A stretch of DNA of 64,000 nt from Candidatus Poribacteria bacterium (GTDB taxonomy: Bacteria; Poribacteria; WGA-4E; WGA-3G), in assembly GCA_022827885.1 (NCBI GenBank), contig JAJEIP010000008.1:768-64767 (forward strand), written 5' to 3'. This document shows positions 2-60,327 of this stretch, in pieces (within the stretch, counting starts at the first letter, position 1; each line of letters begins with the position of its first letter). The notes below the pieces were generated by a model. It saw only the letters and a program-made list of their open reading frames with translations, made no database searches and had not been told where the DNA came from. The position numbers and the translations under genes are program-made.

Positions 2-226
2 AGTACCGAGATAGCCACCTATATCGCGAGCGGGGAAACATCGGATAAAGCGGGCGCGTATGGCATCCAAGGACGAGGCGCGGCATTCGTTCGACGCATT
101 GAGGGATGCTATTTTAATGTCGTTGGGCTTCCATTGGCAAGTTTCGTTGAACGCCTATCAAACTTTTCCAAGTCTACTGAAAGTTCTGATATCAAAACCG
201 TAGCCCGTAATGAAATTATGCCTTAA
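2..226 (+). CDS. maf: Maf-like nucleotide pyrophosphatase, C-terminal fragment (5' end outside window)
   Basis: Frame-2 translation ...[36 protein letters not shown]... matches the conserved Maf C-terminal motif. The stop TAA at 224-226 lies in the loop of a repeat hairpin. Confidence 0.75.
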
Positions 227-327
227 ATGGCATAATTTGTCTGTGCTTTACATTTGGAGAGCGACTCGTGATCAAAAACTTTCAAGGTTCTTATCACGAT
301 ACTTATCCGCAAGGTAAAATTAAAAAA
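198..327 (+). repeat. Long-form leader cassette copy 1 (GTAG + hairpin + TTTACATTTGGAGAGC + spacer + CCGCAAGGTAAAATTAAAAAA)
   Basis: Left module 198-263 with a perfect hairpin 213-222/229-238 (AAATTATGCC/GGCATAATTT). Right module 307-327. Confidence 0.8.
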
Positions 328-4128: not shown

Positions 4129-4173
4129 TTTTACATTTTCCTTGCCGGTTTTTCTTTGGGTAAACGTCATCAA

Positions 4174-4713
4174 TTACGACTGCATGTATTTGTCACGGCG
4201 TTGAAGGACTTTATAGGAACGGGCATGGCAGAGTGCGAGTGCGAGCGCATCTGCTGCGTGATCAGGACGTGGCGGTTCCTTGAGTTTTAGCAGGGCTTGT
4301 GTCATCTTCTCCATCTGGGATTTTGTGGCTTTTCCGTAACCTACAACTGCCTGTTTAACTTGGGTAGGTGTATATACAGTAACGGAGCAGTCCGCATTCG
4401 CGGCTGCGAGTTTCACGATCCCTTTAACTTCACCTACAACGAACGCACTGCTTATATTTTTACTGAAAAAAATATCCTCAAGCACGATACTCTCGATAGC
4501 GAATTTGGTAATCAGATGGGTTACGGTATCGTAGATGTGTTTCAACCGCAACTCCGACGCTGTTTTTGGGCTGGTTCTTATATTTCCGTAACCCCGTGAA
4601 ACGAGACGGTTCGCGTGCGCTTCAACTACGCCGTATCCGGTATTCGCAATGCCCGGATCAATGCCAAGAATTTTTTTAATTTTCCTTGCGGTTCGATGAG
4701 GTGGGTTTTGCAT
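4174..4713 (-). CDS. ruvC: Crossover junction endodeoxyribonuclease RuvC (start uncertain)
   Basis: ILGIDPGIANTGYGVV... is the RuvC signature. The first 14 codons of the ORF (MQNPPHRTARKIKK) are a translated repeat cassette. The likely true start is ATT at 4671, 11 nt after AAGGA. Confidence 0.85.
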   Translation of the reverse strand: MQNPPHRTARKIKKILGIDPGIANTGYGVVEAHANRLVSRGYGNIRTSPKTASELRLKHIYDTVTHLITKFAIESIVLEDIFFSKNISSAFVVGEVKGIVKLAAANADCSVTVYTPTQVKQAVVGYGKATKSQMEKMTQALLKLKEPPRPDHAADALALALCHARSYKVLQRRDKYMQS

Positions 4714-4775
4714 TTGATATTCCTTCCCGTAGACCCGTCCTCCACTACGTTACGGACTATGTTTTGATGCTATGA
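4671..4775 (-). repeat. Short-form leader cassette upstream of / overlapping the ruvC start
   Basis: The minus strand reads CCGTAACGTAGTGGAGGACGGGTCTACGGGAAGGAATATCAAATGCAAAACCCACCTCATCGAACCGCAAGGAAAATTAAAAAAA. Confidence 0.7.
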
Positions 4776-4780
4776 AAGAT

Positions 4781-4820
4781 TTTTAATTTTCCTTGCGGTT
4801 TGGTGAGGTGGGTTTTGCAT
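4781..4820 (-). repeat. Extra copy of the cassette 3' module (ATGCAAAACCCACCTCACCAAACCGCAAGGAAAATTAAAAA)
   Basis: Differs at about 3 positions from 4674-4713. It lies 3 nt after the yebC stop. Confidence 0.75.
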
Positions 4821-7271: not shown

Positions 7272-8282
7272 TTAATTTGACGTTTCCAAATTTTTGAAGA
7301 AATCAATTAAATCCGCACCGTGTGTGCTTGCGTTGACCTCTTTATCAATTTCAAGAATCTTCCCTGTTTTATCAATGATAACAGCTAACCGTTGAATCTT
7401 TCCATCTGGAGCATTCGTCGCGCCAAAGAGGAGTGCGAGGTTCCGTCCGGTGTCTACCAAGAGCGGGAAATTCAACTGATTTTCTTCCGAAAATTTCTGG
7501 TGCGAAGCCGCATCATTCGACGTAATCCCAAAAATCTGTGCATCATATTTCTCAAAACGACTCGACTCATCACGGAGTGAGCAAACTTGAGCCGTTCAGC
7601 CACGCCCAAAATCGCGTGGATAGAAGGCTAACACGACATTCTTTTCCTGATGCAATTCACTGAGTTGGTGCGTTTTACCGGTCCCATCGGTTGCAATAAA
7701 ATCTGGGGCGGGTTGCCCAACCGCTATCCTTGGTAAGACGTCCTGAAGCAGTGCTGCGACATCTTCACCGTGCGTTTTGACATTGACATCTGTATCAATG
7801 GCACGGATGTATCCAGCTTTATCAATGATGAAAGTTACCCGTTTTGAGGCATTGAAACTTTCAATGATACCACTATACTGGTGGCTCACCTCAAATTCGG
7901 TATCGGCTAAGAGTGAAAATCCGAATTTCTGTTCTGCCCGAAACCGCTTGTGCGATTCGACGGAATCAACACTGACCCCGAAAAGGACACTTCCAGTGGC
8001 TTCTATCTCGCTCAAATTATCCCGGAGCGAGCAAAGTTCAGTCGTTCAGCCACCTGTAAAATCTTTTGGATAGAAAGCGAGAACGACATTCTTCTTCCCT
8101 AAATAATCGCTGAGACTCCGCTCAACGCCTTCTTCATCTTTCAATGTGAAATCGGGGGCAACCATGCCTACTTTTAGTGTGTTTGGCGTTGTCACTGCTT
8201 CCTCCCCTGAAGCTGCTGAAATTAAAATCGCTGTTATGAGGATAACAGCCCAGACGCTTGCATTCAATCGCGTTTGAAACAT
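7272..8282 (-). CDS. Secreted tandem BCP/PrxQ-type peroxiredoxin with two in-frame TGA (probable selenocysteine) codons
   Basis: ORF-track pieces 8046..8282, 7596..8015 and 7272..7475 share one frame and are separated only by TGA at 8046-8048 and 7596-7598. The TGAs replace the peroxidatic Cys: FYPKDFTGG[TGA]TTELCSLRD and FYPRDFGRG[TGA]TAQVCSLRD. Each TGA is followed by a hairpin 14 nt downstream. Confidence 0.75.
7561..7581 (-). promoter_or_regulatory. Candidate bacterial SECIS hairpin 2
   Basis: Stem CUCACUC/GAGU(c)GAG (7 bp, one bulge) with loop CGUGAU. The stem starts 14 nt after UGA 7598-7596, the same geometry as hairpin 1. Confidence 0.6.
8007..8031 (-). promoter_or_regulatory. Candidate bacterial SECIS hairpin 1
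   Basis: Stem CUCGCUC/GAGCGAG (7 bp) with loop CGGGAUAAUUU. The stem starts 14 nt after UGA 8048-8046. Confidence 0.6.
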
Positions 8283-16914: not shown

Positions 16915-16957
16915 TCCCAAAACTACTTATTGCGAAAAAAATAGCGGTTAGTAAACC

Positions 16958-17046
16958 TAGCCTGTAATGAAATGGAGGGCGGATTACGGAAAGGAATGTC
17001 AAAGATTCAGACTCGCCTGACCGATCCGCAAGGAAAAATTAAAAAA
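16958..17046 (+). repeat. Short-form leader cassette (no hairpin) upstream of the DUF3311-like/SSS genes
   Basis: TAGCCTGTAATGAAATGGAGGGCGGATTACGGAAAGGA...CCTGACCGATCCGCAAGGAAAAATTAAAAAA. The 5' end matches copy 21772-21864. Confidence 0.75.
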
Positions 17047-17223
17047 TTGTACTTTTTGCTTGTGCTATTATTCTTACTTCATAATGATTTTTGGCTCTGG
17101 GGAACCCCGCAGCTTGTTTTAGGAGTGCCGGTAGGGTTGCTCTATCATATAGGGTACTGCATTGTCGCAACGTTACTGATGGCGGTTCTCGTCAAAGCGC
17201 GAGGGGATTGGGGTGAACGATGA
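17047..17223 (+). CDS. DUF3311-like small membrane protein, symporter-associated
   Basis: About 58 aa with 2 TM segments (YFLLVLLFLLHNDFWLWG...PVGLLYHIGYCIV), overlapping the start of the symporter gene. The ORF-track start at 16972 is a translated repeat cassette. TTG 17047 lies 12 nt after AAGGA. Confidence 0.55.
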   Translation: MYFLLVLLFLLHNDFWLWGTPQLVLGVPVGLLYHIGYCIVATLLMAVLVKARGDWGER

Positions 17224-20569: not shown

Positions 20570-21850
20570 CTATGACCTGAGGGAAATAACTTTTGTCAGA
20601 ATAGCATCCGCCACGTCGCGTTTTGAGGCACGTGGGAGTTGTTCGCAGGTGCCGTCTCGCTCCAGCAGGGTTACAATATTCGTATCGACGCCGAATCCGG
20701 CTCCCTCCGCAAGGATGTCATTCGCGACAATGAGATCGCAGTTTTTGCGTATCAGTTTCTTTTGGGCGTTTTCAAGGATGTCGTTCGTTTCGGCGGCGAA
20801 GCAAACGAGGGTTTGGTCGGTTTTCTGTTCGCCAAGTGCCTCGGCGATGTCCGGATTCCTTTCGAGTGGAAGTGTCAAGGTTTCGGCAGTTTTTTTGATT
20901 TTATGGGGCGTAAATTCGCTCGGTCGATAATCGGCAGGCGCGCCCGCCATGATGACAATATCTGTTTCTTTGAAAGTTTGCAAGAGTGCATCATACATCT
21001 CAAGCGTCGTCTCGACGTGCTGGATTTCAATGTCGGCAGGGGCAGGGACGGTCGCAGCGCCGCTAATCAGACGCACCTCTGCACCCCGCTGTGCAGCCGC
21101 TTCAGCAATGGCGTATCCCATCTTACCACTCGAACGGTTGGTGATAAAGCGGACCGGATCGATATATTCGCGTGTTGCCCCGGCTGTGACGAGAACGCGT
21201 GTCCCTCGTAAATCAGATGTTTCGGTTTTGGATAGACTGTTCGATCTGGCATCCGAAAGAATATCATTTATCCGTTGCAGGATTGCATCCACTGTGTTCA
21301 GCCGTCCCGTCCCTTCATAACCGCAGGCTAAATCGCCGCTATCGGGTTCAACGAAATGAATCCCGTGCGTTTTCAAGGTGTCAATATTCCGTTGCACAAA
21401 CGGATTGTGGTACATATGTCCGTTCATCGCCGGTGCGAGGAGAATTGGACAGTGGACGGAAACCGCAACGGTCGAGAGCGCGTCGTCAGCGATGCCGTTT
21501 GCCATCTTACCGATGATATTCGCTGTCGCGGGGACGATTGCGAGGAGATCCGCACGATCGGCGAGATCAATATGCGGGGGTTTCCAGTCTGTTCCAGCGT
21601 CGAATAGGTTCAGGAGGACAGGATTCCGTGAGATGACTTGGAATTGCAGTGGCTGCACGAGGCGTGTGGCGTTTTCCGTCATGACGACGTGGACGGATGC
21701 TCCGTCTTTGACGAGTTGGCTCGCCACATCAATCGACTTGTGGATAGCGATGCCCCCTGTGACACCTAAGATAATATTTTTAATTTTTCCTTGCGGTTCG
21801 GTGAGGTAGATTGAAGGAACAACGATCCTCTCCGTATATCCGCCCTCCAT
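20570..21850 (-). CDS. coaBC: Bifunctional phosphopantothenoylcysteine decarboxylase/synthetase (start uncertain)
   Basis: ILGVTGGIAIHK and PAMNGHMY, plus the C-terminal CoaB half (VTAGATREYIDPVRFITNRSSGKMG). The first 25 or so codons of the ORF are a translated repeat cassette. The likely start is ATT at 21775. Confidence 0.9.
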   Translation of the reverse strand: MEGGYTERIVVPSIYLTEPQGKIKNIILGVTGGIAIHKSIDVASQLVKDGASVHVVMTENATRLVQPLQFQVISRNPVLLNLFDAGTDWKPPHIDLADRADLLAIVPATANIIGKMANGIADDALSTVAVSVHCPILLAPAMNGHMYHNPFVQRNIDTLKTHGIHFVEPDSGDLACGYEGTGRLNTVDAILQRINDILSDARSNSLSKTETSDLRGTRVLVTAGATREYIDPVRFITNRSSGKMGYAIAEAAAQRGAEVRLISGAATVPAPADIEIQHVETTLEMYDALLQTFKETDIVIMAGAPADYRPSEFTPHKIKKTAETLTLPLERNPDIAEALGEQKTDQTLVCFAAETNDILENAQKKLIRKNCDLIVANDILAEGAGFGVDTNIVTLLERDGTCEQLPRASKRDVADAILTKVISLRS

Positions 21851-21864
21851 TTCATTACAGGCTT
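21772..21864 (-). repeat. Short-form leader cassette upstream of coaBC
   Basis: The minus strand reads AAGCCTGTAATGAAATGGAGGGCGGATATACGGAGAGGA...CTACCTCACCGAACCGCAAGGAAAAATTAAAAAT. Confidence 0.75.
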
Positions 21865-21905
21865 GATTTTCCTTTTGCTGGTTTTGGAGTGATACAGGGT
21901 TTAAT

Positions 21906-22559: not shown

Positions 22560-22661
22560 TGGAAGCGTTTTAGTTTATGGAGTTTAGGGACAAGTCTATA
22601 GAGGTTCGTAAGACAATGCTCTCCGCTCCGCTTAGGGACAGGTTTCTGATAATCCTAAGAC

Positions 22662-22775
22662 GTAGCCTGCAACAATACGCAGAAATACCCAAGCAAAAAC
22701 ACGCAGGCGGCTATACGGAGAGGCACTTTAATATCCAAACCCACCGCATCGAACCGCAAGGTATAATTAAAATAT
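22662..22775 (+). repeat. Variant leader cassette in the gmk-ferredoxin spacer, antisense to the flanking genes
   Basis: GTAGCCTGCAA...AAATACCCAAGCAAAAACAC...GGCGGCTATACGGAGAGGCAC...CCCACCGCATCGAACCGCAAGGTATAATTAAAAT. The AAAYACCCAAGCAAAAAYAC module recurs at about 986-1006. Confidence 0.65.
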
Positions 22776-23239
22776 TAGTCTGCGGCTTCAGCTTCAGCCA
22801 GTTCCACAAGCACGGGGGATTCAATGCGGATAGCGTCCTTGATACAGACCTCTTCACACAACTTGCAGCCGACACAGTCTTTCGGTTTAACGAGTTCACA
22901 GATACCAAAGAAACTTTCAGCGTGTTCACCGGTCTCTGGGTCCTTGAGTTCAAGACACTCCCAGGGACAAATATGGACACAGAAGTCGCATCCCGAGCAG
23001 AGTTCTTCATAGATAACGGCGATAGGTCGGTGCGTGGGTCGACGAATGAATTTGCACACCTCTCCGAACTGGTCACGGATTGCCTCGACTGGACAGACCA
23101 TCCCGCACGCGCTACAATCAATGCAAATATTCGGATCGATGATGTGTAGCATGTTCCGATCGCCCGTGATTGCATCAACCGGGCAGTTCGTCAAACACGC
23201 CATGCACCCGATACACTCGTCGGTGATATAATATGCCAT
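22775..23239 (-). CDS. Polyferredoxin, four [4Fe-4S]-type cluster motifs
   Basis: 154 aa with CIGCMACLTNCP, CIDCSACGMVCP, CSGCDFCVHICP and CVGCKLCEEVC. Confidence 0.85.
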   Translation of the reverse strand: MAYYITDECIGCMACLTNCPVDAITGDRNMLHIIDPNICIDCSACGMVCPVEAIRDQFGEVCKFIRRPTHRPIAVIYEELCSGCDFCVHICPWECLELKDPETGEHAESFFGICELVKPKDCVGCKLCEEVCIKDAIRIESPVLVELAEAEAAD

Positions 23240-24415: not shown

Positions 24416-26161
24416 TCAATCGTCCCCAAGTAGTGGTGAGTTTTCCTTTAAGACACCCGCAACGAGGACAAGGTCCTGTATATTGACAATCCCATCACCA
24501 TTGATATCCGCAGGATTGCTTCCCGATTGCCCAAGATTCGATGCGACCGATACAAGGTCTTGGATGTTAACAATACCATCCCCCGTGACATCCTCTTTGC
24601 GTCTTGTAGGTTCAGTGGTATCTGACATAGTGGATGGATTGAGCTCCCATAAGAGTACGGTGCCGTCATAACTCCCGCTTGCGAGGGTATTGCTATCTGG
24701 ACCAAACGATACGCTGTTAACCTCAGCCGCATGCCCGGTGAGCGTGCGGAGCTCGCTACCCGTGTTCACATCCCAGAGACGGACGGTGCCGTCCCAACTC
24801 GCGGTTGCGACGGTCGTCCCATCTGGACTAAACGAGACGCCGACGATCGCACCCTCATGCCCAGTGAGCGTGTGGAGCTCGCTGCCCGTGTTCACATCCC
24901 AAAGGCGGGCGGTGCTATCGTAACTCCCGCTTAGGATGAGCGTCCCATCCGGACTAAACAATACGCTGGCAGCCCCAGCCGTATGTCCGGTGAGCGTGCG
25001 GATCTCGCTACCTGTGTTGGCATCCCAGAGACGGACGGTGCGGTCATAACTCCCACTGACAATGGTCATCCCATCTGGGCTAAACGCTGCACTTCTGACC
25101 CAATGCGTATGCCCCGTAAGTGTGCGGAGATGGCTGCCTGTGTTCACATCCCAGAGACGGACGGTGTTGTCCCCACTCGCGGTTGCGATGAGCGTCCCAT
25201 CCGGACTAAACGATACATCTCTGATCCAATCCGCATGCCCTCTGAGTGTGCGAAGTGGACCACCCGTGTTCACATCCCACAGACGGGCGGTGTCGTCATA
25301 GCTCCCACTGGCGAGAGTCGTGCCATCGGGACTAAACGATAGGCTGTTGACCTTATCTCTATGCCCTCTGAGCGTGTGGAGATGACTACCCGTGTTCGCA
25401 TTCCACAGGCGGACGGAGTAGTCACCAGCCATCCAACGGCCGATTCGGTCCCCACTCCCGCTGGCGACGGTTCTGCCATCTGGACTCAACGAGACGCTGG
25501 CGACCCCAGCCGTATGCCCGGTGAGTGTGCGGATCTCGCTGCCTGTGTCCGCATCCCACAGACGGAGGGTGCCATCTTCACTTCCACTTGCGATGGTGCT
25601 GCCATCTGAGCTAAACGAGACGCTGAGAACCCCAGGCTTAATAAAGTTTCTGCTCGACTTCGTATGCCCTGTGAGCGTGCGGATCTCGCTACCCGTGTTG
25701 GCATCCCAGAGACGGACGGTGTTGTCTGCACTCCCGCTTGCGATGGTGCTGCCATCTGGACTCAACGAGACGCTGAAGACCTTATCCCTATGCCCTGTGA
25801 GCGTGCGGAGGTGTGAACCCGTACTCGCATCCCAGAGACGGATGTCACTGTCTTCACCCCCGCTTGCGATGGTGCTGCCATCTGGACTCAACGAGACGCT
25901 GTTGACCGACTTCGTATGCCCTCTGATCAGTTCGAGTGCTTCACCTGTCTGTGCGTCGTAGATCCAAATACCGATACTACTTGCGACTGCCAGACGTGTG
26001 CCGTCCGGCGAATATGTTACTTCATTTATCTTCCCTTTGCCGAGACGAGCTTTAGCACCTTCGGGTAATCCGAAGGTTGTGTAGTTTTGTGCCGAGGTGT
26101 TTGGCACGACAGTAAACATCGCCAAAAGTAGAACGAAAATCGAAAATAGTGTAATTTTCAC
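24416..26161 (-). CDS. Secreted WD40 beta-propeller repeat protein with C-terminal tandem dockerin-like repeats
   Basis: Signal peptide, then about 11 near-identical WD40 units (GH...SVSFSPDG.T.ASGS.D.TVRLWD), then 2x DxxGDGIVNIQDLVxVA calcium-binding dockerin-type repeats. The DNA shows a roughly 126-bp periodicity over about 24650-25960. Confidence 0.9.
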   Translation of the reverse strand: MKITLFSIFVLLLAMFTVVPNTSAQNYTTFGLPEGAKARLGKGKINEVTYSPDGTRLAVASSIGIWIYDAQTGEALELIRGHTKSVNSVSLSPDGSTIASGGEDSDIRLWDASTGSHLRTLTGHRDKVFSVSLSPDGSTIASGSADNTVRLWDANTGSEIRTLTGHTKSSRNFIKPGVLSVSFSSDGSTIASGSEDGTLRLWDADTGSEIRTLTGHTAGVASVSLSPDGRTVASGSGDRIGRWMAGDYSVRLWNANTGSHLHTLRGHRDKVNSLSFSPDGTTLASGSYDDTARLWDVNTGGPLRTLRGHADWIRDVSFSPDGTLIATASGDNTVRLWDVNTGSHLRTLTGHTHWVRSAAFSPDGMTIVSGSYDRTVRLWDANTGSEIRTLTGHTAGAASVLFSPDGTLILSGSYDSTARLWDVNTGSELHTLTGHEGAIVGVSFSPDGTTVATASWDGTVRLWDVNTGSELRTLTGHAAEVNSVSFGPDSNTLASGSYDGTVLLWELNPSTMSDTTEPTRRKEDVTGDGIVNIQDLVSVASNLGQSGSNPADINGDGIVNIQDLVLVAGVLKENSPLLGDD

Positions 26162-32186: not shown

Positions 32187-32321
32187 CGGTTCTCGGTTGT
32201 CAGTGCTCGGTTAAAGAGGGTGCTGGTAACAATCTTCCCCAGTTTGGAATATTCCAAGGCACCGGTGAATTGTTACCAAAAAATCTCTTAACTGAAAACC
32301 GAAAACTGATAACTGACAACC
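32187..32321. repeat. Nested palindromic element built on GGTTNTC/GANAACC heptamers
   Basis: Outer stem GGTTGTCAG 32195-32203 / CTGACAACC 32313-32321. Middle stem TGGTAACAAT 32224-32233 / ATTGTTACCA 32269-32278. Central perfect palindrome TTGGAATATTCCAA at 32244-32257. Confidence 0.75.
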
Positions 32322-32328
32322 ATTAAAC

Positions 32329-33858: not shown

Positions 33859-36411
33859 ATGAGATCAGATGAGATAACAGTTTCACGACAGGGCAACTTG
33901 GTCGTGATAAACCATACGCAATTTGAAATTAAGTTTAACCTTGCAAGAGGGACATGGGATTATATTGATGAGAACGGGGACACAATTATCCGAGAGGGTT
34001 GTACGCAGGTAACCCTTGACGATGGAAAGGTCGTCAAAACTGAGGACGCTGGGACTCGCGAATTTATCACAGAACTTCCGAAGACCGACGCTTTCGGGAG
34101 TTATCACCCAATTCGCTTCTCATACGAAGCGACAGGTAAGTGGATTCGGATAAACACCTATCTCAATTGTTATACCGAACACTCCGCAATACACGTTAAG
34201 GTGAGTATTGAGAACCTAAAGCCGAAACCCATTCGACTCAACAATGTAACTGTGCTTGGGGTTTCAGCCAACCGTAGTGGGGGTGTGTTCCTTGGGGGGC
34301 TTCCATCGGATTGCCATCTCTTTATTAACACGCCACCTGTCTCTCCCGGCATCAGTAGAAAACTCTATGAAGGGTTTCTACTGAGTGAGACCGACGCTAT
34401 GCATCCGAGCAATGATGGCCTCCTTTGCGATACAAAAGGCGGGAAAGCACTTGTCTTCGGATTCCTGACGGCTGAGAAATGGTGGCCCCGAATTCAAGTG
34501 GGCTGCCATAAAAACAGTGGGCGTGGCTCACGCGGGCAAGGTAAGCGGTCATCCGCGTCGGGTGTCAATCCGTGGGCACTTTATCATGAGTGTCGGCAAA
34601 CGTGTGATCCGGGGGAAAAGATCACCTCCGAAACTGCTTACATCAATTTTACAGATACAGCATCTGCAGCCTATGAACATTATATTTCGCTGATAGCCGC
34701 GCAAAACAGCGCACACGAGAGCGAACGTATTCAAAATCAAACGTCCCGCGAATCCGGCACCCCGGCGACTGTGTGGACGCTTTCGGATACAGAAGGATCA
34801 ATTGATGCCAGTGCTATCTTAACCCAAGTGGATGCTCTTGCCGAGAGTCCGATGTTTCAGCCGAACTTTCCCGGCGGCATTGATTCTGTTCAATTGAATG
34901 CAGTCTCGGAATCAGAAGTGGGGATTTTTTCGAAAGGTTCAGATGCCGCAGTATCCCAAAATCGTGAGGAAATAAAAGCGGTTGTCCGTCAGATTCGAGC
35001 GAAGGGTTTCAAAGCGGGGCTCCGGTTCAATCCGTTCTGTGCAGCACTGGATTCGAGGCTTGTTCAAAACCATCCGGATTATTGTATACAAGAGAAAACT
35101 GCCGCCCGAGGTGGCAGAAAATATTCACGGCATCATTCTACGCGTAAAGGCTACAAACCTGCCTCTGTTCATCTACCAGAGAGTGGTAAAGAGGTCGCGC
35201 TTTTGGATGTTTCGCATCCACAGGTGCAGTCACGTATTCGTGAACAGATGAAACAGGTCGTAGGCGAATGTGGATATTCCTTCATCCACGCCGATTTTAC
35301 AGCTTATACGCTGGGGCTCACGAACGCTTCACATAACTTGCACTGGCATGATAGCAGCCTGACCTCAGTCCAACTTTATCGTCTCGCTGGAAAATTACTC
35401 AGAGAGGCGATTGATGAAGGACAGTCAGAAAACGGGCGCCTCAAGGATGATGTGCTGCTGGCAGGATACAATACGGTCCCAGGTCCGTGCATCGGTAGTA
35501 TTGATGTTAATACGCCACTCCTCAGCCCTTCCCCTTCTGCTATCGGCCGGACTTCCAACCGTCCAAGTGACTCATGGCACCATCAACGTGGGACGAAGCA
35601 TCGCCTGAGTCGGTATGCAGCGCATCTCGCGGAACATAACGTTCTCTGGGGACATATTTTCGGTGAGATTGCTGTTGATGAACCCCGTCCGGTTAACGAA
35701 GTAATTGTAGAAATGACAGCAGCTGCGTTGAGCGGTGGGACAGTCTTGTGCGCAGACCCATCTCTGACACTGCGTACCTCGCGTGCGAGTTACTTAGCAA
35801 AAATCTTTCCACTCATAGGCGAGGCGGCTACACCTATAGACCTTTACGATGAACCGTTTCCCAAGATATGGTGCCTACCCGTGTCAACACCGCGCGAATC
35901 CTGGTATCTCACCGCAGTTTTCAACTGGGACGACCATGAAGATGACGCTTATTTTGAATTGGAGGCACTTGGGTTACCCAAATCTAAGGATTTCCTCGTC
36001 CATGACTTCTGGATACGCCAGTATCTTGGAAAGGTTTCGGACAGTGTAACCTTGTTAAACATTCCACCCCGTTCTGCGAAACTGCTCTGCTTCCGTGAAG
36101 AACAGGATGTGCCACAATTCCTCGCTACGGATATGCACTATACACAGGGTGGTGTTGAGATTCTGTCTGCGGGTTGGGATAGACACAGCCAGACTTACAT
36201 GATCGTCTGCAAACCGCTTCGACAAACCGAAGGCACCTGCTTTATTCATGTGCCGGAAGGTTACCTACCCGTAAGTGTGGCAACCTATGGTAGCGATTAT
36301 CAGTATAATTGGGACAAACCGATTTATAAACTAACGTTTACGGGAACGCAGCCGGATCAGCTGGTGCATGCCAGTGTTCACTTCGCGAAAACTTCGGGAG
36401 GCAACTTGTAG
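33859..36411 (+). CDS. Glycoside hydrolase-like protein (GH36 alpha-galactosidase-like)
   Basis: 850 aa. The central segment GFKAGLRFNPFCAALDSRLVQNHPDYCI...ALLDVSHPQVQSRIREQMKQVV..GYSFIHADF follows the GH36/GH27 (beta/alpha)8 motif order. Confidence 0.45.
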   Translation: MRSDEITVSRQGNLVVINHTQFEIKFNLARGTWDYIDENGDTIIREGCTQVTLDDGKVVKTEDAGTREFITELPKTDAFGSYHPIRFSYEATGKWIRINTYLNCYTEHSAIHVKVSIENLKPKPIRLNNVTVLGVSANRSGGVFLGGLPSDCHLFINTPPVSPGISRKLYEGFLLSETDAMHPSNDGLLCDTKGGKALVFGFLTAEKWWPRIQVGCHKNSGRGSRGQGKRSSASGVNPWALYHECRQTCDPGEKITSETAYINFTDTASAAYEHYISLIAAQNSAHESERIQNQTSRESGTPATVWTLSDTEGSIDASAILTQVDALAESPMFQPNFPGGIDSVQLNAVSESEVGIFSKGSDAAVSQNREEIKAVVRQIRAKGFKAGLRFNPFCAALDSRLVQNHPDYCIQEKTAARGGRKYSRHHSTRKGYKPASVHLPESGKEVALLDVSHPQVQSRIREQMKQVVGECGYSFIHADFTAYTLGLTNASHNLHWHDSSLTSVQLYRLAGKLLREAIDEGQSENGRLKDDVLLAGYNTVPGPCIGSIDVNTPLLSPSPSAIGRTSNRPSDSWHHQRGTKHRLSRYAAHLAEHNVLWGHIFGEIAVDEPRPVNEVIVEMTAAALSGGTVLCADPSLTLRTSRASYLAKIFPLIGEAATPIDLYDEPFPKIWCLPVSTPRESWYLTAVFNWDDHEDDAYFELEALGLPKSKDFLVHDFWIRQYLGKVSDSVTLLNIPPRSAKLLCFREEQDVPQFLATDMHYTQGGVEILSAGWDRHSQTYMIVCKPLRQTEGTCFIHVPEGYLPVSVATYGSDYQYNWDKPIYKLTFTGTQPDQLVHASVHFAKTSGGNL

Positions 36412-36496
36412 TTTTAGTCTCGCTCGTCACCAACCCGCGTAGATCCGGAGGCAACTTATAGTTTTAATCTCACTCGTCACCAATCCCGGTCGGTGC
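36397..36496 (+). repeat. 50-bp tandem duplication spanning the 3' end of the GH36-like gene
   Basis: Unit 1 at 36397-36446 and unit 2 at 36447-36496. The first 37 nt differ at 3 positions (GGAGGCAACTTGTAGTTTTAGTCTCGCTCGTCACCAA vs ...TTATAGTTTTAATCTCACTCGTCACCAA). Confidence 0.8.
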
Positions 36497-40908: not shown

Positions 40909-40947
40909 GACATTTAAGAATAGTAATCGGAAGGCAGGAGGCAAAAC

Positions 40948-41092
40948 CCGTAGTTCGTAATGAAATTATGCCTTAAATGGCATAATTTGTCTTAGCTTTA
41001 CATTTGGAGAGCAGATCTACGGGGAGGCACTTGAAAGTTTCCAATCCACCTGACCGAACCGTAAGGAAAATTAGAAAAAGGGAGAAAATTTC
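40948..41092 (+). repeat. Long-form leader cassette copy 2
   Basis: Left module 40948-41013, near-identical to copy 1, with hairpin 40963-40972/40979-40988. Middle CTACGGGGAGGCAC...CCACCTGACCGAA. Right module CCGTAAGGAAAATTAGAAAAA at 41059-41079. GTG at 41093. Confidence 0.8.
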
Positions 41093-44000
41093 GTGAGGAG
41101 CAAAAAGGAAATTCCTGCTGAGAGTAAGTCGTATTCTGCTTTGTTCTTTATTCTATCCGGATTGTTGGGATTGGTGACGATATGGGGATTCTGGAGTGAG
41201 ATGATTACTCGGCGCCCATGGAAGCAGATCCAGCAGCAATTTTATCAATATGAGTATGAAAAGACACACGCGGAATTAGAGAACGCAAAATTGGCGTTGC
41301 CTGAACTTCCTACACCTCAAGAGCCGGATGCCAAGGCACTCGCACAGTTAACGAAGGAGGTCAGGAACGCTCAAGTCGCCTTGGATGAAGCACTGCAGGA
41401 ACGCAAATTCCGACAGAGCGAGTCGGATGCTATTAACTATAAATATCAGCACAGCCTCCACGAAGCGAAGGGGAGACACAATGAGACTGTTGACAAATGG
41501 CAGAAGAAGTTAGCAGATTTCGAGTCCCAAATTGAAGGCGAACTCACCGAAGCCGTTTTGGGAGCGGAAGCCACCTTTGCAAGCGCGAACGTAGCTCTGG
41601 CGCAGTTTTATCAAGCCAATGGGGACGCACAAAGTGCCCTGAGTACCTACCTCATCGCCCAGAAATATAGTCCTACAGATACAGAAATCACTACAGGGAT
41701 CACCGCCGCACAAGCCTCTCTTGCGTCACTGCAAGCCGACAAAGCAAAACACGACGAAGTTGCGCTTCTTGAAGAGAAACTACATTCCGTCGGGGGTATC
41801 AAGCGGACCTTCTTGGGGAGTCTGTTAGAGAACCCTTTCCGTGAAACACGCACCATCGTTCAATACTATCTTGAAGACTTCAATCATACCGCAGACAGGT
41901 GTGCTACCTGCCATTTCTCCGCCGATAGAAGCGGTTACGATCAATCCGCGCAAGAGATATTTGAAGTGGAAGGGGATGGCGAGAATCCTGTTGTGCAGCG
42001 TCTCAAGCACGCAAGCATCAAGGTCGGTAGTGAAAATGTTATAATTGATGGATTTGAAGCGGAAGCCGATGAATATACATTGGAGGAAAACGGGACACTT
42101 ACCTTCAGTGACGTGGATGTCTTCGGTGAAGTTGAAATCTCTTATGAGACCGGCTATCGTTCCGTCCTTCAAACGCATCCGCACCGCGATGTCCTGCTCG
42201 ACAAACACCCTGTTGATAGATTTGGATGCACCCCGTGCCACGGTGGGCAGGCACAGGCACTCACAGCGAAATCCGCCCACGCCTTGACACATGCTGAATA
42301 CTGGCTCACGCCTGTCCTCGGATTAGATGAGCATACCGGTAGAACGTCCGAAGAGACGAAAGGCTATATGGAATCTAACTGCCGCCGCTTCCACGACGGC
42401 GTGATGATGTTAGATTACGGTGTGAATCCTGAAACAGATGAACCGCAGGACTATGCCCCGAATTTGACGAAGGGATTGGCACTCTTTGAAGACCTCGGAT
42501 GTCACGGATGCCACGCTGTTGAAGGGTATAGCGCAATCGATAATATCGCCAAAGTGGGTCCATCACTTGCGAAAATCGGCAGTAAGGTGAAAGATACGGC
42601 ATGGCTTGAAAGTTGGATTAAGAAACCCGAAGCCTATCTCGCAAATACGACAATGCCGAATTTCTTCCCTGCTGATGGCATGACGCAGCTTGTCTATCTC
42701 AAGAACGGCGGGCAGCGCACTGGCGTTGTTACCAAAACCGCCACTGGCATTGTCATTAAAACAGACGATGGCACGGAATATCCCTATCCCGACAGTTATG
42801 TCCTTCGCATTGTTGATGAGGTGAAATCTATCTCGGCTTACCTCGCCGCGATGAACGATGCCGATTTGGACGCATCCAGTTCTAATTATTCCACATCCGA
42901 AAGGGCTATTAAGGCAGGCGAGGAGACCGTCAAAACCGTTGGCTGCCTCACGTGTCATGCTGTTGACGGTTTAGGAAGTGATTTTGCCCCGGCACTCGAC
43001 AGTGTTGGTGCAAAAGTTACAGCGAATTATCTCCGCCAGTGGATTGAGGATCCAAAAGCTTATGACCCGGATACAAGTATGCCGAGTTTGCGATTAAGTG
43101 CCGGCGAACTTGACAACGTCGTTTCCTATCTGATGAGTCTGCAGCAAGCAACAACAGACGTGGCTACGGACTCCATCGGTGAGGTAGATGTCGCTGAAGG
43201 TGAAGCACTCGTCAGGACTTACGGATGTTTCGGGTGTCACGAGATTCCCGGTTTTGAAGATGAGTCAAAGGTCGGTGCGGATCTCGGCGAGTTCGGCGCG
43301 AAATTGGCTGATGAACTTGACTTTGGTGATACAGTTGACGTTGAACACAATTGGACGGGATGGACGGTCGGTAAAGTTACCAATCCACGACGTTATCAAA
43401 CGCGACGGATTGCTTCTCGGATGCCGGTCTTCCAGATTAATGATGAAGACGCGAGAGCGATCGCCGTGCTCTTGAAGAGTTTCCAACCCGAGCAGTATCC
43501 GCTGAGTTATATCCATAACCGATCCGAGAAATTGAACGACATTGATGCGGGTAGACGATTGGTGAAAAAGTATAACTGCACGGGATGCCACGAGATTGAA
43601 GGCGCCGGCGGCGATTATCAGGAGGTTATCATCGCACACGAAGGGTTGAGTGAGATGGTTGCCAAACAAGTTGCACCGCCACCCTTGAAAGCGGAAGGCG
43701 CGAGAGTGTATCCAGACTGGTTATTTACGTTCCTCAAAGAACCTTCAGACATCCGATACGGACTCAAGGTCCGGATGCCGACGTTCGAGTTATCTGATGA
43801 CGAAGCGACAACGCTGGTTAAATACTTCTCCGCGCTTGACGATGAGCCGTTCCCTTATGAAACACTTGAAACGCCAACACCGACGCGTGCTGAATTGCGA
43901 GTGGGTAAGCAGATTTTTGACACACTTCAGTGTATCTCCTGTCATCCAGCGAAAGGTGAAGCGATTCCTGAAGGGAGCGACAAGGCAGGACGACCCGATC

Positions 44001-47400: not shown

Positions 47401-47423
47401 CAGAGGCGATGGAACAAAGTGCG

Positions 47424-47574
47424 CAGCTCGTAATGAAATTAGGTTCTCCTTAAATGGCATAATTTGTCTTAGTTTTACATTTGGAGAGCGGATTTAAGAG
47501 CGGCACGCTAACACCCAAACCTATGTCATTTAACCGCAAGGAATAATTAAAAAGCCGCAAGGAATAATTAAAAA
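47424..47574 (+). repeat. Long-form leader cassette copy 3 (hairpin left arm disrupted; right module tandemly duplicated)
   Basis: CTCGTAATGAAATTAGGTTCTCCTTAAATGGCATAATTTGTCTTAGTTTTACATTTGGAGAGCGGAT. CCGCAAGGAATAATTAAAAA occurs at 47534-47553 and again at 47555-47574, and ATG 47575 follows directly. Confidence 0.8.
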
Positions 47575-49083
47575 ATGTCAAGAGATACGCTGATAAAAAT
47601 CGCGAGTCTCATCTTAATGGTGGTGAGTTTTGTCGCCTATATTGCCGGGGCATCGGCGTTTCCGGTCGCCTCAGAGAACTTGTTACCTTGGTCGGTTTGG
47701 TTTCTCATTTCGGTAATTATAAATATCGTTTTGTGGTCGAACGTCATGAAGCTGTTGACGTTTTCGCTTGCCGTGATATGGTTTTACGCCTTCGTCGCCG
47801 GGCTGGTCCCGGAAAGTTCCACAGCGGTGAATCTGACATCGCTGGATTGGAGCGATCCGGATGCAGTTGCTGAACAGGGTGCCTTAGTCTTTAACGGCAA
47901 AGGGCAGTGTGCCGCATGTCATACCGTTGATCCATCGGCACCACCAGGAAGGTGTCCCGATCTGACAGACATCGGCATTAACGCCGCCAGTCGCGTCCCA
48001 GGTACGGATGCCAAAACCTATCTCATCGAATCGCTTTATGAACCTCACAAATATCTTGTGCCCGGATACGGCAAAATTATGCCAGAGATTTGGAAGGCTC
48101 CCATCGCCCTCTCTAAATTGGAGATTGAGGCAGTTATCGCTTACCTCCAGAGTCTCGGTGGTGAGATCGATCCAACACCCTTTGATGAACCGATAGATCG
48201 GGCGGATGCGGGGACAAGCGCTGAGGCACTTCCACCCCTCCTGACGGGGGATCCAGAACTCGGCAAAAAGGTATTTGTGACTGCAGCGTGTATCTCGTGC
48301 CACGCTGTGACAGGTATAGAAAGTCCAGCTGCAGGTGAGACGAGTACAGATTTTGAAGTCGTCACTGCGCCCGACCTCTCTGAAATTGCCGCCTTTAACG
48401 ACATGCGGTATCTTGAGGAGTCGGTCTTGATCCCCAACGCGCAAATCGTAAGCGGTTACGGTGCCGTTATCGTCCGTGCGAACGGAACGACCTATCAAGG
48501 AACCCTTGTTTCACAGGATACAGAACAGATTGTCGTCCGAACCAAAACCGCGGATGGCGTTGAAGAGGAGCATACCCTCTTATTGAGCGAACTCGACGAT
48601 GAGCCGATTGAAGAACTTAGTAATCTGCAAGCGAGAGGTTATTTTACGTTGACACTAACGCCTACGAATTCGGATGCGCCAGTGAGTGGCGAGATCGTTT
48701 CGGAAACCGATGACACTGTGACGCTTAAGATCGGTGGCGAAGATCGGTCTTTTTCCAAGACAGATGTGAAAAGCCAGATGACGGTTATCACTTTTGATGG
48801 CGATGAAATTGTTGGCGACTACGTTTCAGGCTCGATGGACGACGACGAAATCATCCTCGTCGTTGACGGTAGCGAGGAAATCTTTGATACGTTTGATCTT
48901 GAGGAAGCGACCTTTACCCGTGCCTCTGGCAAGAAATTGCTGGTTACGTCACCGATGCCCGAAAACTTTCCGCTACTGTTATCGGTATCGGATATGAGCA
49001 ATTTGCTCTCCTTTTTAAGCACACTCACTGGCGCGACAGCGGAAGCAGCACCAGTAGAGACAGATGACGCTTCCGCCGAATAA
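47575..49083 (+). CDS. Membrane-anchored dihaem cytochrome c with PVC-type haem-binding-domain tail
   Basis: 3 N-terminal TM segments. CAACH and CISCH. Three small beta-repeat units, then SPMPENFPLLLSVSDMSNLLSFL (the S.MPEGL...DLLAYL-type ending of the Pirellula/Verrucomicrobium haem-binding domain). Confidence 0.8.
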   Translation: MSRDTLIKIASLILMVVSFVAYIAGASAFPVASENLLPWSVWFLISVIINIVLWSNVMKLLTFSLAVIWFYAFVAGLVPESSTAVNLTSLDWSDPDAVAEQGALVFNGKGQCAACHTVDPSAPPGRCPDLTDIGINAASRVPGTDAKTYLIESLYEPHKYLVPGYGKIMPEIWKAPIALSKLEIEAVIAYLQSLGGEIDPTPFDEPIDRADAGTSAEALPPLLTGDPELGKKVFVTAACISCHAVTGIESPAAGETSTDFEVVTAPDLSEIAAFNDMRYLEESVLIPNAQIVSGYGAVIVRANGTTYQGTLVSQDTEQIVVRTKTADGVEEEHTLLLSELDDEPIEELSNLQARGYFTLTLTPTNSDAPVSGEIVSETDDTVTLKIGGEDRSFSKTDVKSQMTVITFDGDEIVGDYVSGSMDDDEIILVVDGSEEIFDTFDLEEATFTRASGKKLLVTSPMPENFPLLLSVSDMSNLLSFLSTLTGATAEAAPVETDDASAE

Positions 49084-49187
49084 TTTTAATCTATTGTTTC
49101 TGAGTTGCTGCGTCCGTTGTCCTTGCAGATATTGAATCGTTAAAAAAATATTTCATAACCTAAAAAAGGTGCTTTATCAATTTTAGA

Positions 49188-49215
49188 TCGGGGTTGACAA
49201 CGGAAACCCCGACCC
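49188..49215 (-). repeat. REP-like hairpin (GGGTCGGGGTTTCCGTTGTCAACCCCGA)
   Basis: 8-bp stem TCGGGGTT/AACCCCGA between two cytochrome c genes. Confidence 0.55.
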
Positions 49216-49234
49216 GAAGCACATAGTTAAAAAA

Positions 49235-51735: not shown

Positions 51736-51872
51736 TTATCGGGCGTTTGCGCTGCCGTCCACTGTGTTTCAGGCAGGCTTTCGGTCAACTCACGCCTCAT
51801 ACTTAACCAAAAACCATCGCGAAACGTAGTGGAGCGATGCCCAGATTCCAATAGTTAAAAAAAGGAGAAAAA

Positions 51873-54338: not shown

Positions 54339-54390
54339 GTTGTCGGTTATCGGTAGTTGATTTTCAGTTCACAACTGACAACTGATAACC
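54339..54390. repeat. Heptamer-based palindromic element upstream of coxB
   Basis: GTTGTCGGTTATCGGTAGTTG...CAACTGACAACTGATAACC. GGTTATC 54345-54351 pairs with GATAACC 54384-54390. AGTTG pairs with CAACT. Confidence 0.7.
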
Positions 54391-54407
54391 CTTAAAAGGA
54401 GAATTTA

Positions 54408-57874: not shown

Positions 57875-58810
57875 ATGCGTTCAACAACGGTAACGTTACC
57901 AAACGATACAGATACAGTGAATCCACCGTCAAAGCAGGTGACTTTTGTGCATCGCGTCGCTGACTTTATCGAACTCGTCAAACCGAGATTGGTCGTGATG
58001 ATACTCATCACGACTGCTGCGGGTTTCTATCTCGGGGCACAGCAGACAGTAGATTGGCTCCGATGTCTGCATACACTCGTTGGTGCAGGATTGACAGCGG
58101 CGGGTGTCTTGGGACTCAACCAATATCTTGAACGCGATGTAGACGCGCAGATGAAACGGACGCAGGAGAGACCGCTCCCCGGTGGTAGAATGCATCCGCT
58201 GACAGCACTGCTTATCGGTTCTGTCCTCACGGGTGGTGGGATGCTTTACCTGACAATATGGGTCAATATGTTGAGTGGTTTTGTCATTTCGCTGATAGTC
58301 GTGAGTTATCTCTTTCTCTATACGCCGCTGAAGCGGAAAACCTCACTGTGTACGCTTATCGGCGCAGTGCCCGGGGCGCTCCCGCCTGTCGTCGGATGGG
58401 TTGCTGCACGAGGGTCGCTAACAGGTGAGGCGTGGGTACTGTTTACGATACTCTTTTTGTGGCAGATACCGCACTCTCTCGCAATCGCCTACATCTATCG
58501 CGAAGACTACGCAAATGCGGGATTCCGTTTGTTGCCGGTCATTCACCCGGATGGGACGAGTACGTGTCGTCAAATTGTGGTTAACTGTGTCGCACTCCTC
58601 GGCATAGGTTTGCTACCGACGTTATACAATATCGCCGGTAGCGTCTATTTCTTCACAGCGCTGCTATCAGGGGTAGGGTTTCTGGCGGTCGGTATCTATT
58701 TAGCACGCACACGTTCGGTGAAAGCCGCACGCTATCTGTTATATGCCTCGCTGCTCTATCTGCCGTTGGTGTTTGTGACCATGGCGTTAGACAAAACAAT
58801 CGTCGTTTAA
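57875..58810 (+). CDS. ctaB: Protohaem IX farnesyltransferase (haem O synthase)
   Basis: NQYLERDVDAQMKRTQERPLPGG and YTPLKRKT are UbiA-family CyoE/CtaB motifs. Confidence 0.9.
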   Translation: MRSTTVTLPNDTDTVNPPSKQVTFVHRVADFIELVKPRLVVMILITTAAGFYLGAQQTVDWLRCLHTLVGAGLTAAGVLGLNQYLERDVDAQMKRTQERPLPGGRMHPLTALLIGSVLTGGGMLYLTIWVNMLSGFVISLIVVSYLFLYTPLKRKTSLCTLIGAVPGALPPVVGWVAARGSLTGEAWVLFTILFLWQIPHSLAIAYIYREDYANAGFRLLPVIHPDGTSTCRQIVVNCVALLGIGLLPTLYNIAGSVYFFTALLSGVGFLAVGIYLARTRSVKAARYLLYASLLYLPLVFVTMALDKTIVV

Positions 58811-58830
58811 CCGCAAGGAAAATTAAAGAG
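58811..58830 (+). repeat. Cassette 3' module only (CCGCAAGGAAAATTAAAGAG) before the DUF805 gene
   Basis: Directly between the ctaB stop and ATG 58831. Confidence 0.6.
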
Positions 58831-60033: not shown

Positions 60034-60303
60034 ATGCATAAATTGTTTTTCTGGGCATCTATCTTGATACTCGTTATGTTCATCGTACCGATGTCTCTTG
60101 AGGCGTGTCCGGGCTGTAAAGAACTTGATGAGCCTATCAGTAAGGGTTTTAATTGGAGTATCCTTTTTCTGATGGCGATGCCGTTTACGGTTTTCGGTCT
60201 CATCGGTGGCACAGTTTATTTACATTGGAATGGTTATCGGTTATCGGTTATCGGTAGTCGGTTAAAGAAAGATTTTCTACGTATCAGAAGTCTCCTTAAC
60301 TGA
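60034..60303 (+). CDS. Small hypothetical membrane protein with CPGC motif
   Basis: ATG 60034 is preceded by AAGGA. It has 2 TM segments, and the C-terminal codons run into a heptamer repeat element. Confidence 0.35.
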   Translation: MHKLFFWASILILVMFIVPMSLEACPGCKELDEPISKGFNWSILFLMAMPFTVFGLIGGTVYLHWNGYRLSVIGSRLKKDFLRIRSLLN

Positions 60304-60327
60304 TTACTGACCGCTAACGACTGAAAC
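60232..60327. repeat. Heptamer tandem repeat (GGTTATC x3, GGTAGTC, GGTTAAA) forming a long imperfect hairpin with CTTAACTGATTACTGACC...
   Basis: Left arm 60251-60267 pairs with 60295-60310 (G-U pairs and one bulge allowed). Same GGTTAAAGA...CTTAACTG core as 32187-32321. Confidence 0.7.

Follow-up and report, generated by a model that had tools for sequence, protein, structure and literature searches.

Small dispersed repeats lying between bacterial genes have been described under several names, and we compare with them here a modular cassette found in a 64-kb stretch (hereafter the window) of a Candidatus Poribacteria genome, part of a 149-kb scaffold from a sponge metagenome. In heterocyst-forming cyanobacteria, Elhai and colleagues reportedly described in 2008 small dispersed repeats nested in other repeats. 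Classical repetitive extragenic palindromes (REPs) lie near the 3' end of the upstream open reading frame (ORF), at a variable distance from the downstream one, and are frequent between convergent ORFs (PMC3733652); the pneumococcal BOX (boxA-boxB-boxC), enterobacterial ERIC and Neisseria Correia elements are 100-150-nt, non-coding, structured multi-copy modules (PMC3049150, PMC3184786); and reused, putatively mobile promoters appear as highly similar upstream regions before non-homologous genes, within and between related genomes (PMC3575422). Three repeats in the window are long-form members of an abundant, apparently undescribed family of modular cassettes, so far seen only in Poribacteria; rather than assigning it to a named family, we describe it as a novel variant within the small dispersed repeats. 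Our preferred reading, to which we assign a probability of roughly 0.6, is that of an evolutionarily mobile, REP/BIME-like, transcribed 5' untranslated region (UTR) or intercistronic cassette carrying a ribosome-binding site (RBS).

A first-pass annotation of the window had placed an intergenic repeat at three positions, and the sequence there indeed holds three near-identical left modules of ~60 nt, each accompanied by a right module in which CCGCAAGG runs into an A/T-rich stretch (198-327, 40944-41092 and 47421-47574). A repeat search of the window yielded one 69-nt family (194-262, 40944-41012 and 47421-47489); the 22-mer CCTTAAATGGCATAATTTGTCT has exactly three occurrences, with none expected from shuffled sequences, and TTTACATTTGGAGAGC has three exact occurrences. 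Sequencing runs containing the window sequence are sponge or marine metagenomes and metatranscriptomes. The components of the three copies are as follows, P1 denoting the covarying hairpin described below.

192-327, plus strand: cassette copy 1, long form (5' flank, P1 with insertion, hairpin spacer, right module), preceding a KduI/IolB-family gene
203-262, plus strand: copy 1 hairpin P1, with 5' strand GCCC 203-206, loop start GTAATGAAAT 207-216 and 39-nt insertion 217-255; on its 3' side, GGA 256-258 and 3' strand GAGC 259-262, with one C.A mismatch
213-238, plus strand: copy 1 perfect 10-bp hairpin within the insertion, AAATTATGCC / TTAAAT / GGCATAATTT, with the Maf stop TAA at 224-226
263-306, plus strand: copy 1 spacer, ACTCG...ACTTAT type, with a 7-bp hairpin TCGTGAT/ATCACGA
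307-327, plus strand: copy 1 right module CCGCAAGGTAAAATTAAAAAA; in-frame ATT 319-321 is the sole start candidate near the domain
40944-41092, plus strand: cassette copy 2, long form, between a cytochrome b C-terminal gene and a 1036-aa multihaem gene
40953-41012, plus strand: copy 2 P1, with 5' strand GTTC 40953-40956, GTAATGAAAT 40957-40966, 39-nt insertion 40967-41005, GGA, and GAGC 41009-41012
41013-41058, plus strand: copy 2 spacer, form B (AGATCTACGGGGAGGCAC...CCACCTGACCGAA)
41059-41079, plus strand: copy 2 right module variant CCGTAAGGAAAATTAGAAAAA, then a native GGGAG Shine-Dalgarno at 41080-41084 and GTG at 41093
47421-47574, plus strand: cassette copy 3, long form, between a bd-like oxidase gene and a 502-aa cytochrome c gene
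47426-47489, plus strand: copy 3 P1, with GCTC 47426-47429, GTAATGAAAT 47430-47439, 43-nt insertion with altered arm 47440-47482, GGA, and GAGC 47486-47489
47490-47533, plus strand: copy 3 spacer, form C (GGATTTAAGAGCGGCACGC...GTCATTTAA)
47534-47574, plus strand: copy 3 right modules, two in tandem (47534-47554 and 47555-47574), abutting the ATG at 47575

A typical cassette measures ~100 nt and the long form ~135-155 nt. Its order is a 5' flank of approximately CCAAAACCGTA, the hairpin P1, GG, a locus-variable spacer that forms hairpins in places, and the right module, CCGCAAGG(A/T)A(A/T)AATTAAAAA, i.e. AAGGA and an A/U-rich stretch, which ends, on its 3' side, at the start codon or shortly before it. 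Spacers occur as form B (ATaTACGGAAAGGcac...CCACCTGACCGAA), form C (ATTTAAGAAAGGCACGTCAAAGTTCAAAcCCACgTcGTTTAA), a third form (ACTCGAA...ACTTAT) and a short tail (CCCAGGAGGCCATAGTTAAAAA). P1 is 21-25 nt long, a small hairpin-forming palindrome in the 20-40 bp range of REPs, and has a stem of 4 to 6 bp that differs in sequence among copies yet stays complementary; its loop is conserved as GTAAYGWARTGGA or AACAACGGC, in the first type with a covarying Y-GNA-R mini-hairpin at its apex. When 42 short-form copies were aligned without gaps and evaluated over a 4-bp stem and the apical pair closing the GNA triloop, 91.5% of cells were paired, compared with 78% in shuffles and 33-53% when the partner was slid; double changes filled 52 cells against 14.2 expected, a figure attained in 0 of 500 shuffles. 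At least six Watson-Crick stem classes are represented (GCCT/AGGC, GCCC/GGGC, GCTT/AAGC, GTCC/GGAC, GCTC/GAGC and GCAC/GTGC). The GTAG head that had been reported is the majority form of the family, though not of every copy: copy 3 has GCAG, and GCAG, TTAG, ATAG and CAAG are common. The final G of this tag is the first base of the stem, forming a G-C pair in 40 of the 42 copies.

What the first-pass annotation took as a left module is P1 with a 39-43-nt insertion after GTAATGAAAT in its loop, giving the layout GCTC-GTAATGAAAT-(39 nt, TATGCC...TTTACATTT)-GGA-GAGC. Across 75 distinct long-form copies the closing stem around the insertion is 97% paired, with fully compensated versions such as GCCC/GGGC, GCCT/AGGC, ACGC/GCGT, CCAT/ATGG and ACTC/GAGT. 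The perfect 10-bp hairpin exists in copies 1 and 2 but does not define the family; it sits inside the insertion in the P1 loop and takes AAAT from the original loop. Its 5' arm reads ATTATGCC in 56 of the 75 copies and AGGTTCTCC, AGGTTTCC, AGGTCCTCC or another sequence in 19, and its 3' half is invariant in all recovered copies, most of it having been demanded by both search patterns. Copy 3, the left arm of which had been described as replaced, actually has a 4-nt longer variant of this kind, ATTAGGTTCTCC in place of ATTATGCC, and in a 95%-identical relative the same locus has the perfect hairpin. The case for DNA-level conservation built on that arm is weakened, since the closing stem covaries and RNA contigs span the module.

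Inserts of ~22-40 nt inside repeats or hairpin loops, in either orientation, are a likeness shared with the cyanobacterial nested repeats, to be compared with the 39-nt insertion and with a separate mini-insert of ~22-26 nt, GGTTTTTGCTTGGGTGTTTC; unlike those repeats, the cassettes occur in another phylum and have other sequences, and the long-form insertion is found only at one position of one hairpin loop. The mini-insert is nested in cassettes in either orientation (window 22671-22702, and comparison loci L023, L014, L019, L044 and L064); it sits in the loop of P1, behind P1 or within the spacer's 3' half, sometimes as several tandem copies.

Several other structures were considered for the cassette and rejected. 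An outer helix pairing the flank CCGTAG with CTACGG, predicted by RNAfold in copy 2, had 64.8% of cells paired and no compensatory changes; for a pseudoknot between P1 loop GUGG and CCAC, the CCAC block proved constant across loop classes. P1 resembles a D arm and some spacers contain GGTTCAAACCC, but a tRNA-like element had no ARAGORN or Rfam support and its acceptor pairing was inconsistent. A small ORF of 17 residues in the left module is destroyed by the 4-nt arm variant. The left and right ends had also been likened to direct repeats; the left one is the P1 loop, and its likeness to the right end was not shown to exceed chance.

An exact scan for ATGGCATAATTTGTCTNNNNTTTACATTTGGAGAG in one genome per species (185,579 species) retrieved 71 loci, all 71 in Candidatus Poribacteria; these fall in ~21 assemblies, one complete genome having as many as ~16 exact copies, and a looser left-module pattern gave ten further matches in metagenome contigs. 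The element is dispersed and so not confined to the window loci, a possibility that the first-pass annotation had raised. The right module, also noted there, is real, but it is a separate and much commoner motif, with 11 matches in the window against 0.05 expected; 128 right modules were counted in 613 kb of examined sequence, 81 of them having no long-form core upstream. A profile hidden Markov model built from 21 form B copies found 120 cassettes. For its ~55 genes the 64-kb window holds ~10-13 cassettes, including the three long forms, and in copy number, dispersal and extragenic location the cassettes agree with REPs. Comparison with Rfam, as had been recommended, returned no known RNA family, there being no match at the gathering score in the window and none at E<=1 in two loci rich in cassettes. 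A search of the window for tRNA genes with ARAGORN was negative, blastn found no match among plasmids and phages, and our search of the literature on Poribacteria found no paper describing such an element. An integron attC site was rejected on account of its core-site polarity, which is wrong here, and of the dispersed housekeeping genes; an insertion-sequence end, plasmid or phage sequence was rejected for want of a blastn match.

The cassettes are closely tied to gene starts. Among terminal right modules, 114/143 (80%) have the start of an ORF of at least 90 codons within 45 nt downstream in the sense orientation, the remaining ~20% being stacked in tandem, orphan or reversed. Unrelated genes stand downstream (atpG, argD, hisA, hisI, cytochromes, dehydratases, an ECF sigma factor, ruvC, coaBC). 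The preceding gene is co-directional for 46/55 short forms and 27/38 long forms, and the upstream ORF lies 3 to 900 nt away. Window genes that have no cassette use an ordinary AAGGAG at 5-10 nt, and the AAGGA of the right module can therefore serve as a Shine-Dalgarno sequence, which the module either supplies or precedes. Not every copy adjoins a start codon, as had been supposed of all three in the window: an ATG directly follows copy 3 alone, copy 2 leads into a GGGAG Shine-Dalgarno of its own with a GTG 13 nt beyond the module, and copy 1 has no ATG, GTG or TTG after its right module, the only in-frame candidate being the ATT inside it. Two statements of the first-pass annotation on gene context hold as made. 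The Maf ORF (Pfam PF02545) takes its stop, the TAA at 224-226, from the hairpin loop of copy 1, and therefore the last ten Maf residues are cassette-encoded; copies 2 and 3 lie in a respiratory cluster, preceding multihaem cytochrome c genes amid Rieske, cytochrome b, bd-like and cox genes.

Several genes seem to initiate at an ATT within the right module (ATT AAA AAA). Candidates are window positions 4678-4680 and 21782-21784 (both minus strand) and 319-321 (plus strand), together with L027:1379 and L024:2784 in oriented coordinates. Counted along the longest ORF, the RuvC Pfam domain starts with residue 15 and the CoaBC flavoprotein domain with residue 24, and the candidate genes have no ATG, GTG or TTG between right module and domain. 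An alternative is an upstream in-frame start, with the cassette translated.

In 21 orthologous pairs from different genomes, third-codon positions were 0.76 identical and the 70 nt upstream of the cassette likewise 0.76, compared with 0.957 for the spacer including any right module; the right module itself was 0.959 identical, a value partly forced by the search pattern. Cassettes are far more conserved between species than synonymous sites. Their presence at a given gene is nonetheless fluid: they are gained, lost, swapped, tandem-duplicated and occasionally inverted at orthologous spacers. Eight orthologous multihaem-gene loci were compared with the window at the site of copy 2. The spacer between the cytochrome b C-terminal gene and the multihaem gene, which holds a long form in the window, contains at L083 and L084 a short form whose P1 is different but whose ATTAGAAAA right module, an unusual one, and GGGAGAAAATTTC-GTG agree with those of the window; at L085-L090 it has no cassette, these loci showing unrelated 63-205-nt spacers and a native GGAGGT. 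The next spacer was found in five states: an inverted pair (L083), a long form (L017), a degenerate form (L087), the tail only (window) and a 13-nt spacer (L088). In L017 the site of copy 3 is occupied by a short P1 and short tail, and L068 has cassettes at three genes that lack one in the window. The comparison of orthologous spacers, which had been proposed as a check, thus revealed presence/absence and replacement, and the strict orthologous conservation that would have pointed to a leader fixed at these loci was not seen. Hairpin-arm variants flip between orthologues whose coding sequences are 97-98% identical, which points to gene conversion among copies. The inverted cassette pair at L083:4324-4520 lies in a co-directional spacer; the right module of its reversed copy adjoins the stop of the multihaem gene upstream and has no gene to serve.

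These properties invite comparison with GTAG-tagged REPs, bacterial interspersed mosaic elements (BIMEs) and REPINs (PMC3733652), in which a small palindrome likewise lies beside a GTAG-like head, hundreds of extragenic copies occur, stems are preserved by compensatory changes, copies are usually transcribed and form mosaics with other motifs, and inverted pairs and overlaps with gene ends (as of Maf with copy 1) are occasional. They would also suit a purely selfish repeat of REP/REPIN or MITE type (MITEs being miniature transposable elements with inverted repeats), with P1 a single-stranded DNA hairpin for a transposase, e.g. a RAYT at GTAG; covariation would then reflect only those copies still able to move, and the association with gene starts a target preference of no benefit to the host. 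The high copy number, the gain and loss at orthologous sites, the inverted pairs, tandem stacks and orphan copies, the mini-insertions nested in both orientations and the gene-conversion-like flips among close relatives all fit such a repeat, as does the tally of non-canonical pairs in P1, where G-U pairs (10) do not clearly exceed A-C pairs (4), so that the strand under selection is not proven. Set against this, 80% of right modules stand in one orientation at a fixed distance from the start codon, where the module replaces or precedes the Shine-Dalgarno sequence, and this position is the reverse of that of classical REPs (PMC3733652). Unlike REPs, the cassettes are anchored in one orientation to the downstream start codon and possess a second hairpin as well as a Shine-Dalgarno-like module; in the GTAG tag, unpaired in REPs, the final G takes part in pairing, and the tag is only moderately conserved; and no RAYT gene was found linked to the cassettes, whole genomes not having been scanned. 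Terminal inverted repeats of the MITE kind were not recognized at the tightest junctions (L024 and L064), as judged by eye and with no dedicated search; the ends there, CCRAAACCGTAG... and ...ATTAAAAA, are not inverted copies of each other. When filled and empty sites were compared for a target-site duplication, the right end was seen to abut a native GGAG or ATG, and the left flanks of filled and empty orthologous spacers did not align. On balance we consider selfish spread as the whole explanation to be somewhat unlikely.

BOX, ERIC and Correia elements offer a second set of likenesses, in that they too are gained and lost from strain to strain, are transcribed with their neighbours, whose expression they are able to alter, and contain exchangeable sub-modules. 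In contrast to the cassette, they possess either terminal inverted repeats or one long palindrome overall, and their position is not fixed relative to a start codon; the cassette shows no sequence similarity to them (no Rfam, plasmid or phage match). No BOX, ERIC or Correia element is known to provide the RBS of about a fifth of a genome's genes.

Evidence from RNA consists of assembled contigs, which hold no strand information or read ends and which break at repeats. At copy 3, a locus-specific RNA contig (47438-47578, depth 62-70) overlaps the contigs of the upstream gene (depth 105) and of the downstream gene (depth 70-116), and RNA depth shows no drop across the copy; in L031 a unique spacer is present at gene-level depth. 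Relative to its flanks, the long-form core has a depth ratio of 13-22 in RNA, compared with 15-22 in DNA runs. The contigs fit co-transcription of the whole cassette with its neighbours and give no sign of a strong internal terminator or promoter. No sigma-70 -35/-10 pair at a spacing of 16-18 nt was found on the sense strand of the cassette, and in the left module all matches (9/12) are antisense; the sense strand of that module has TGGCATAAT and no -35. The three tRNA promoters seen in these genomes read TTGACA-N17-TATACT, and none carries a right module. By a simple terminator rule, which asks for a G+C-rich hairpin with a T run directly behind it, the majority variant passes, with only 3 G-C pairs, and the three window copies do not. 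A Bacteroidetes-type -33/-7 promoter (TAcaTTTG), a sigma-54 promoter (TGGCA..TTGC) and TTTACA as a -35 were each rejected for wrong spacing or the lack of a conserved partner element.

These observations bear on whether the long-form insertion is a portable transcription signal, TGGCATAAT serving as an extended -10 for the downstream gene and the hairpin with its T-rich tail as a weak terminator for the upstream one; the two elements would make of an intercistronic cassette a transcription-unit boundary. In keeping with this, TGGCATAAT is invariant in all recovered copies (both search patterns having demanded it), a perfect extended -10, TGGTATAAT, is present in one copy, the hairpin keeps its right half even in copies with an altered left arm, and the majority variant (..TCTTTGCTT) scores as terminator-like. 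In addition, 29% of long forms lie in divergent intergenic regions, some of them back to back with another cassette with only 30-60 nt between, and there is an antisense match to AAGACA-N17-CATAAT. However, a -35 is lacking and the distance to the conserved block upstream varies by 3-4 nt, known promoters of these genomes being of the canonical kind given above; the RNA contigs of copy 3 cross the whole module with neither drop nor jump in depth between the flanking genes; and the terminator rule is not satisfied by any of the three window copies. Covariation persists in the stem that closes around the insertion, and both of its strands thus seem to be needed in one molecule. Nor do long forms lie significantly more often at divergent sites than short forms do (11/38 against 9/55). 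A role as transcription signal is, in our view, unlikely. At L041 and L048, a reversed long-form module lies ~60 nt upstream of a divergent gene with a right-module-like start region of its own; on the forward side there is no nearby ORF, and the antisense match could matter there.

As with the reused upstream regions (PMC3575422), highly similar cassettes precede non-homologous genes. They differ from such promoters in lacking a canonical promoter, in their covarying hairpin and in lying mostly between co-directional genes; the last of these traits, together with the RNA contigs that run through copy 3, the one copy examined closely, speak for a leader rather than a promoter. The right module could itself be a promoter, (T/A)A(T/A)AAT acting as a -10 box 5-7 nt before the ATG of leaderless or very short-leader mRNAs. 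Variants TATAAT, TAAAAT and AATAAT with the ATG 5-7 nt downstream would agree with this, as would a scan match TTATCA-N18-TAAAAT in copy 1; where a native Shine-Dalgarno is present (copy 2, and window 51873), a start ~7 nt past the box would leave a short leader that bears it. We hold this to be very improbable: locus-specific spacer RNA contigs lie upstream of the module at gene-level depth, the common spacer forms have no TTGACA-like -35 at the right distance, other genes of the window use an AAGGAG at 5-10 nt that the AAGGA of the module matches, and the right module is absent from all three tRNA promoters.

A further possibility is a shared regulatory leader, in which P1, with its internal loop and GNA triloop, and GGA motifs (AUGGAG, ACGGAAAGG and CAAGGA) would bind a CsrA/Hfq/ProQ-type regulator or a small RNA, so that hundreds of genes would come under joint translational control. 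CsrA sites have an ARGGA core, to which the CAAGGA of the right module appears to conform. The loop nucleotides are conserved and the stems covary, each cassette offers several Shine-Dalgarno-like purine tracts and one anti-Shine-Dalgarno-like CCACCUC tract, and conservation exceeds that of neutral sites. The downstream genes, on the other hand, have no common function; the spacer forms differ widely, so that no single extended binding platform is conserved; a candidate regulator was not identified; and gain and loss at orthologous genes are frequent, which is unusual for a regulon. We regard joint regulation as distinctly unlikely.

We return to the mobile, transcribed cassette that carries an RBS. 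The earlier suggestion of a REP- or MITE-like mobile cassette with its own ribosome-binding region is supported as to mobility and initiation, by the 71 dispersed loci, the unrelated downstream genes, presence and absence at orthologous sites and the location of the right module at the Shine-Dalgarno; the anatomy is different from that proposed, and MITE-type terminal repeats were not recognized. We infer that the cassette acts at the RNA level, in initiation and insulation. Transcription would include it with its gene, as a 5' UTR or between cistrons, and from the right module the downstream gene would gain a strong and standardised region for translation initiation. The hairpins would shield this region from the sequence upstream and probably also delimit segments of the mRNA or stabilise them. 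Copies would spread by a copy mechanism and be homogenised through gene conversion.

A number of observations weigh against this proposal. The RNA basis consists of contigs only, with no transcript 5' or 3' ends mapped and with DNA carry-over possible. The second hairpin, in form B, is 75.5% paired with few compensations (e.g. CGTTTAGG/CCTAAACG), which is modest support, and copy 3 taken entire folds no better than shuffles (z = 0.23). The fifth or so of right modules that are orphan, tandem or reversed fits selfish spread, and the high conservation could stem from gene conversion instead of selection. As to spread, no transposase was identified, no genome-wide search having been made, and the ends showed no recognizable terminal repeats.

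Other cassettes and parts of cassettes in the window, in addition to the three long forms, are the following.

4129-4147, minus strand: degenerate right module before ruvA
4669-4764, minus strand: short-form cassette before ruvC, with P1 GTCC/GGAC, form B spacer and right module
4778-4818, minus strand: partial tandem duplicate upstream of the ruvC cassette (3' half and right module)
16953-17048, plus strand: short-form cassette with P1 GCCT/GGGC, loop GTAATGAAATGGA, form B spacer and right module
21776-21866, minus strand: short-form cassette before coaBC (dfp)
22657-22776, plus strand: short-form cassette with P1 GCCTGC/GCAGGC and a different nested mini-insert, 22671-22702
49184-49234, plus strand: short-tail cassette with hairpin CGGGGTT/AACCCCG, loop GACAACGGA, then ...CACATAGTTAAAAAA and ATG
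51802-51860, plus strand: short-tail cassette with P1 ATCGC/GCGAT, loop GAAACGTAGTGGA, then CCCAGATTCCAATAGTTAAAAAAA and a native GGAG
58795-58830, plus strand: 3' half of a form C spacer and right module before a DUF805 gene

The short-tail cassette at 49184-49234 lies in a 136-nt intergenic unit (49099-49234) that is tandemly duplicated in the 95%-identical OY764016.1 (L005) and also in the strain represented in metatranscriptomes. Another intergenic repeat family consists of inverted heptamer blocks, (CGGTTAT)n ... (ATAACTG)n, around short spacers beside gene ends (2433-2452, 32187-32322, 54340-54395 and 60237-60320 in the window). On the minus strand, 24645-26003 contains seven or more 126-nt tandem repeats inside a 581-aa ORF (24416-26161), which is therefore a repeat-domain protein. 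Blocks 7311-7643 and 7761-8093 are 72-77% identical at a spacing of 450 nt and look like tandem paralogous small genes on the minus strand, and 36394-36493 is a 50-nt direct tandem repeat of 82% identity directly after the stop of an 850-aa ORF.

The Poribacteria lineage has been reported as compartmentalised, and a factor recognising P1 would be of interest there. In a bolder scheme, which is speculative and to which we give only a small chance, about a fifth of Poribacteria genes would have been given a movable, plug-in structured leader, in which P1 would be the recognition hairpin for a phylum-specific processing, stabilising or localisation factor, the right module a standard start (AUU in some cases) and the insertion a second layer of control. 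If confirmed, the cassettes would constitute a phylum-wide case of small mobile repeats serving as ready-made 5' UTRs, and expression signals in Poribacteria would be partly modular and exchangeable. There would be consequences for annotation and assembly, as gene callers would mis-place the starts of genes with a cassette (here the ORFs of ruvC and coaBC extend across it) and assemblies would break at cassette repeats. The cassettes might also furnish natural insulator-plus-RBS parts, and in an uncultivated, ecologically important sponge symbiont they would provide a strongly covarying RNA hairpin that could be tested for a partner protein or nuclease.

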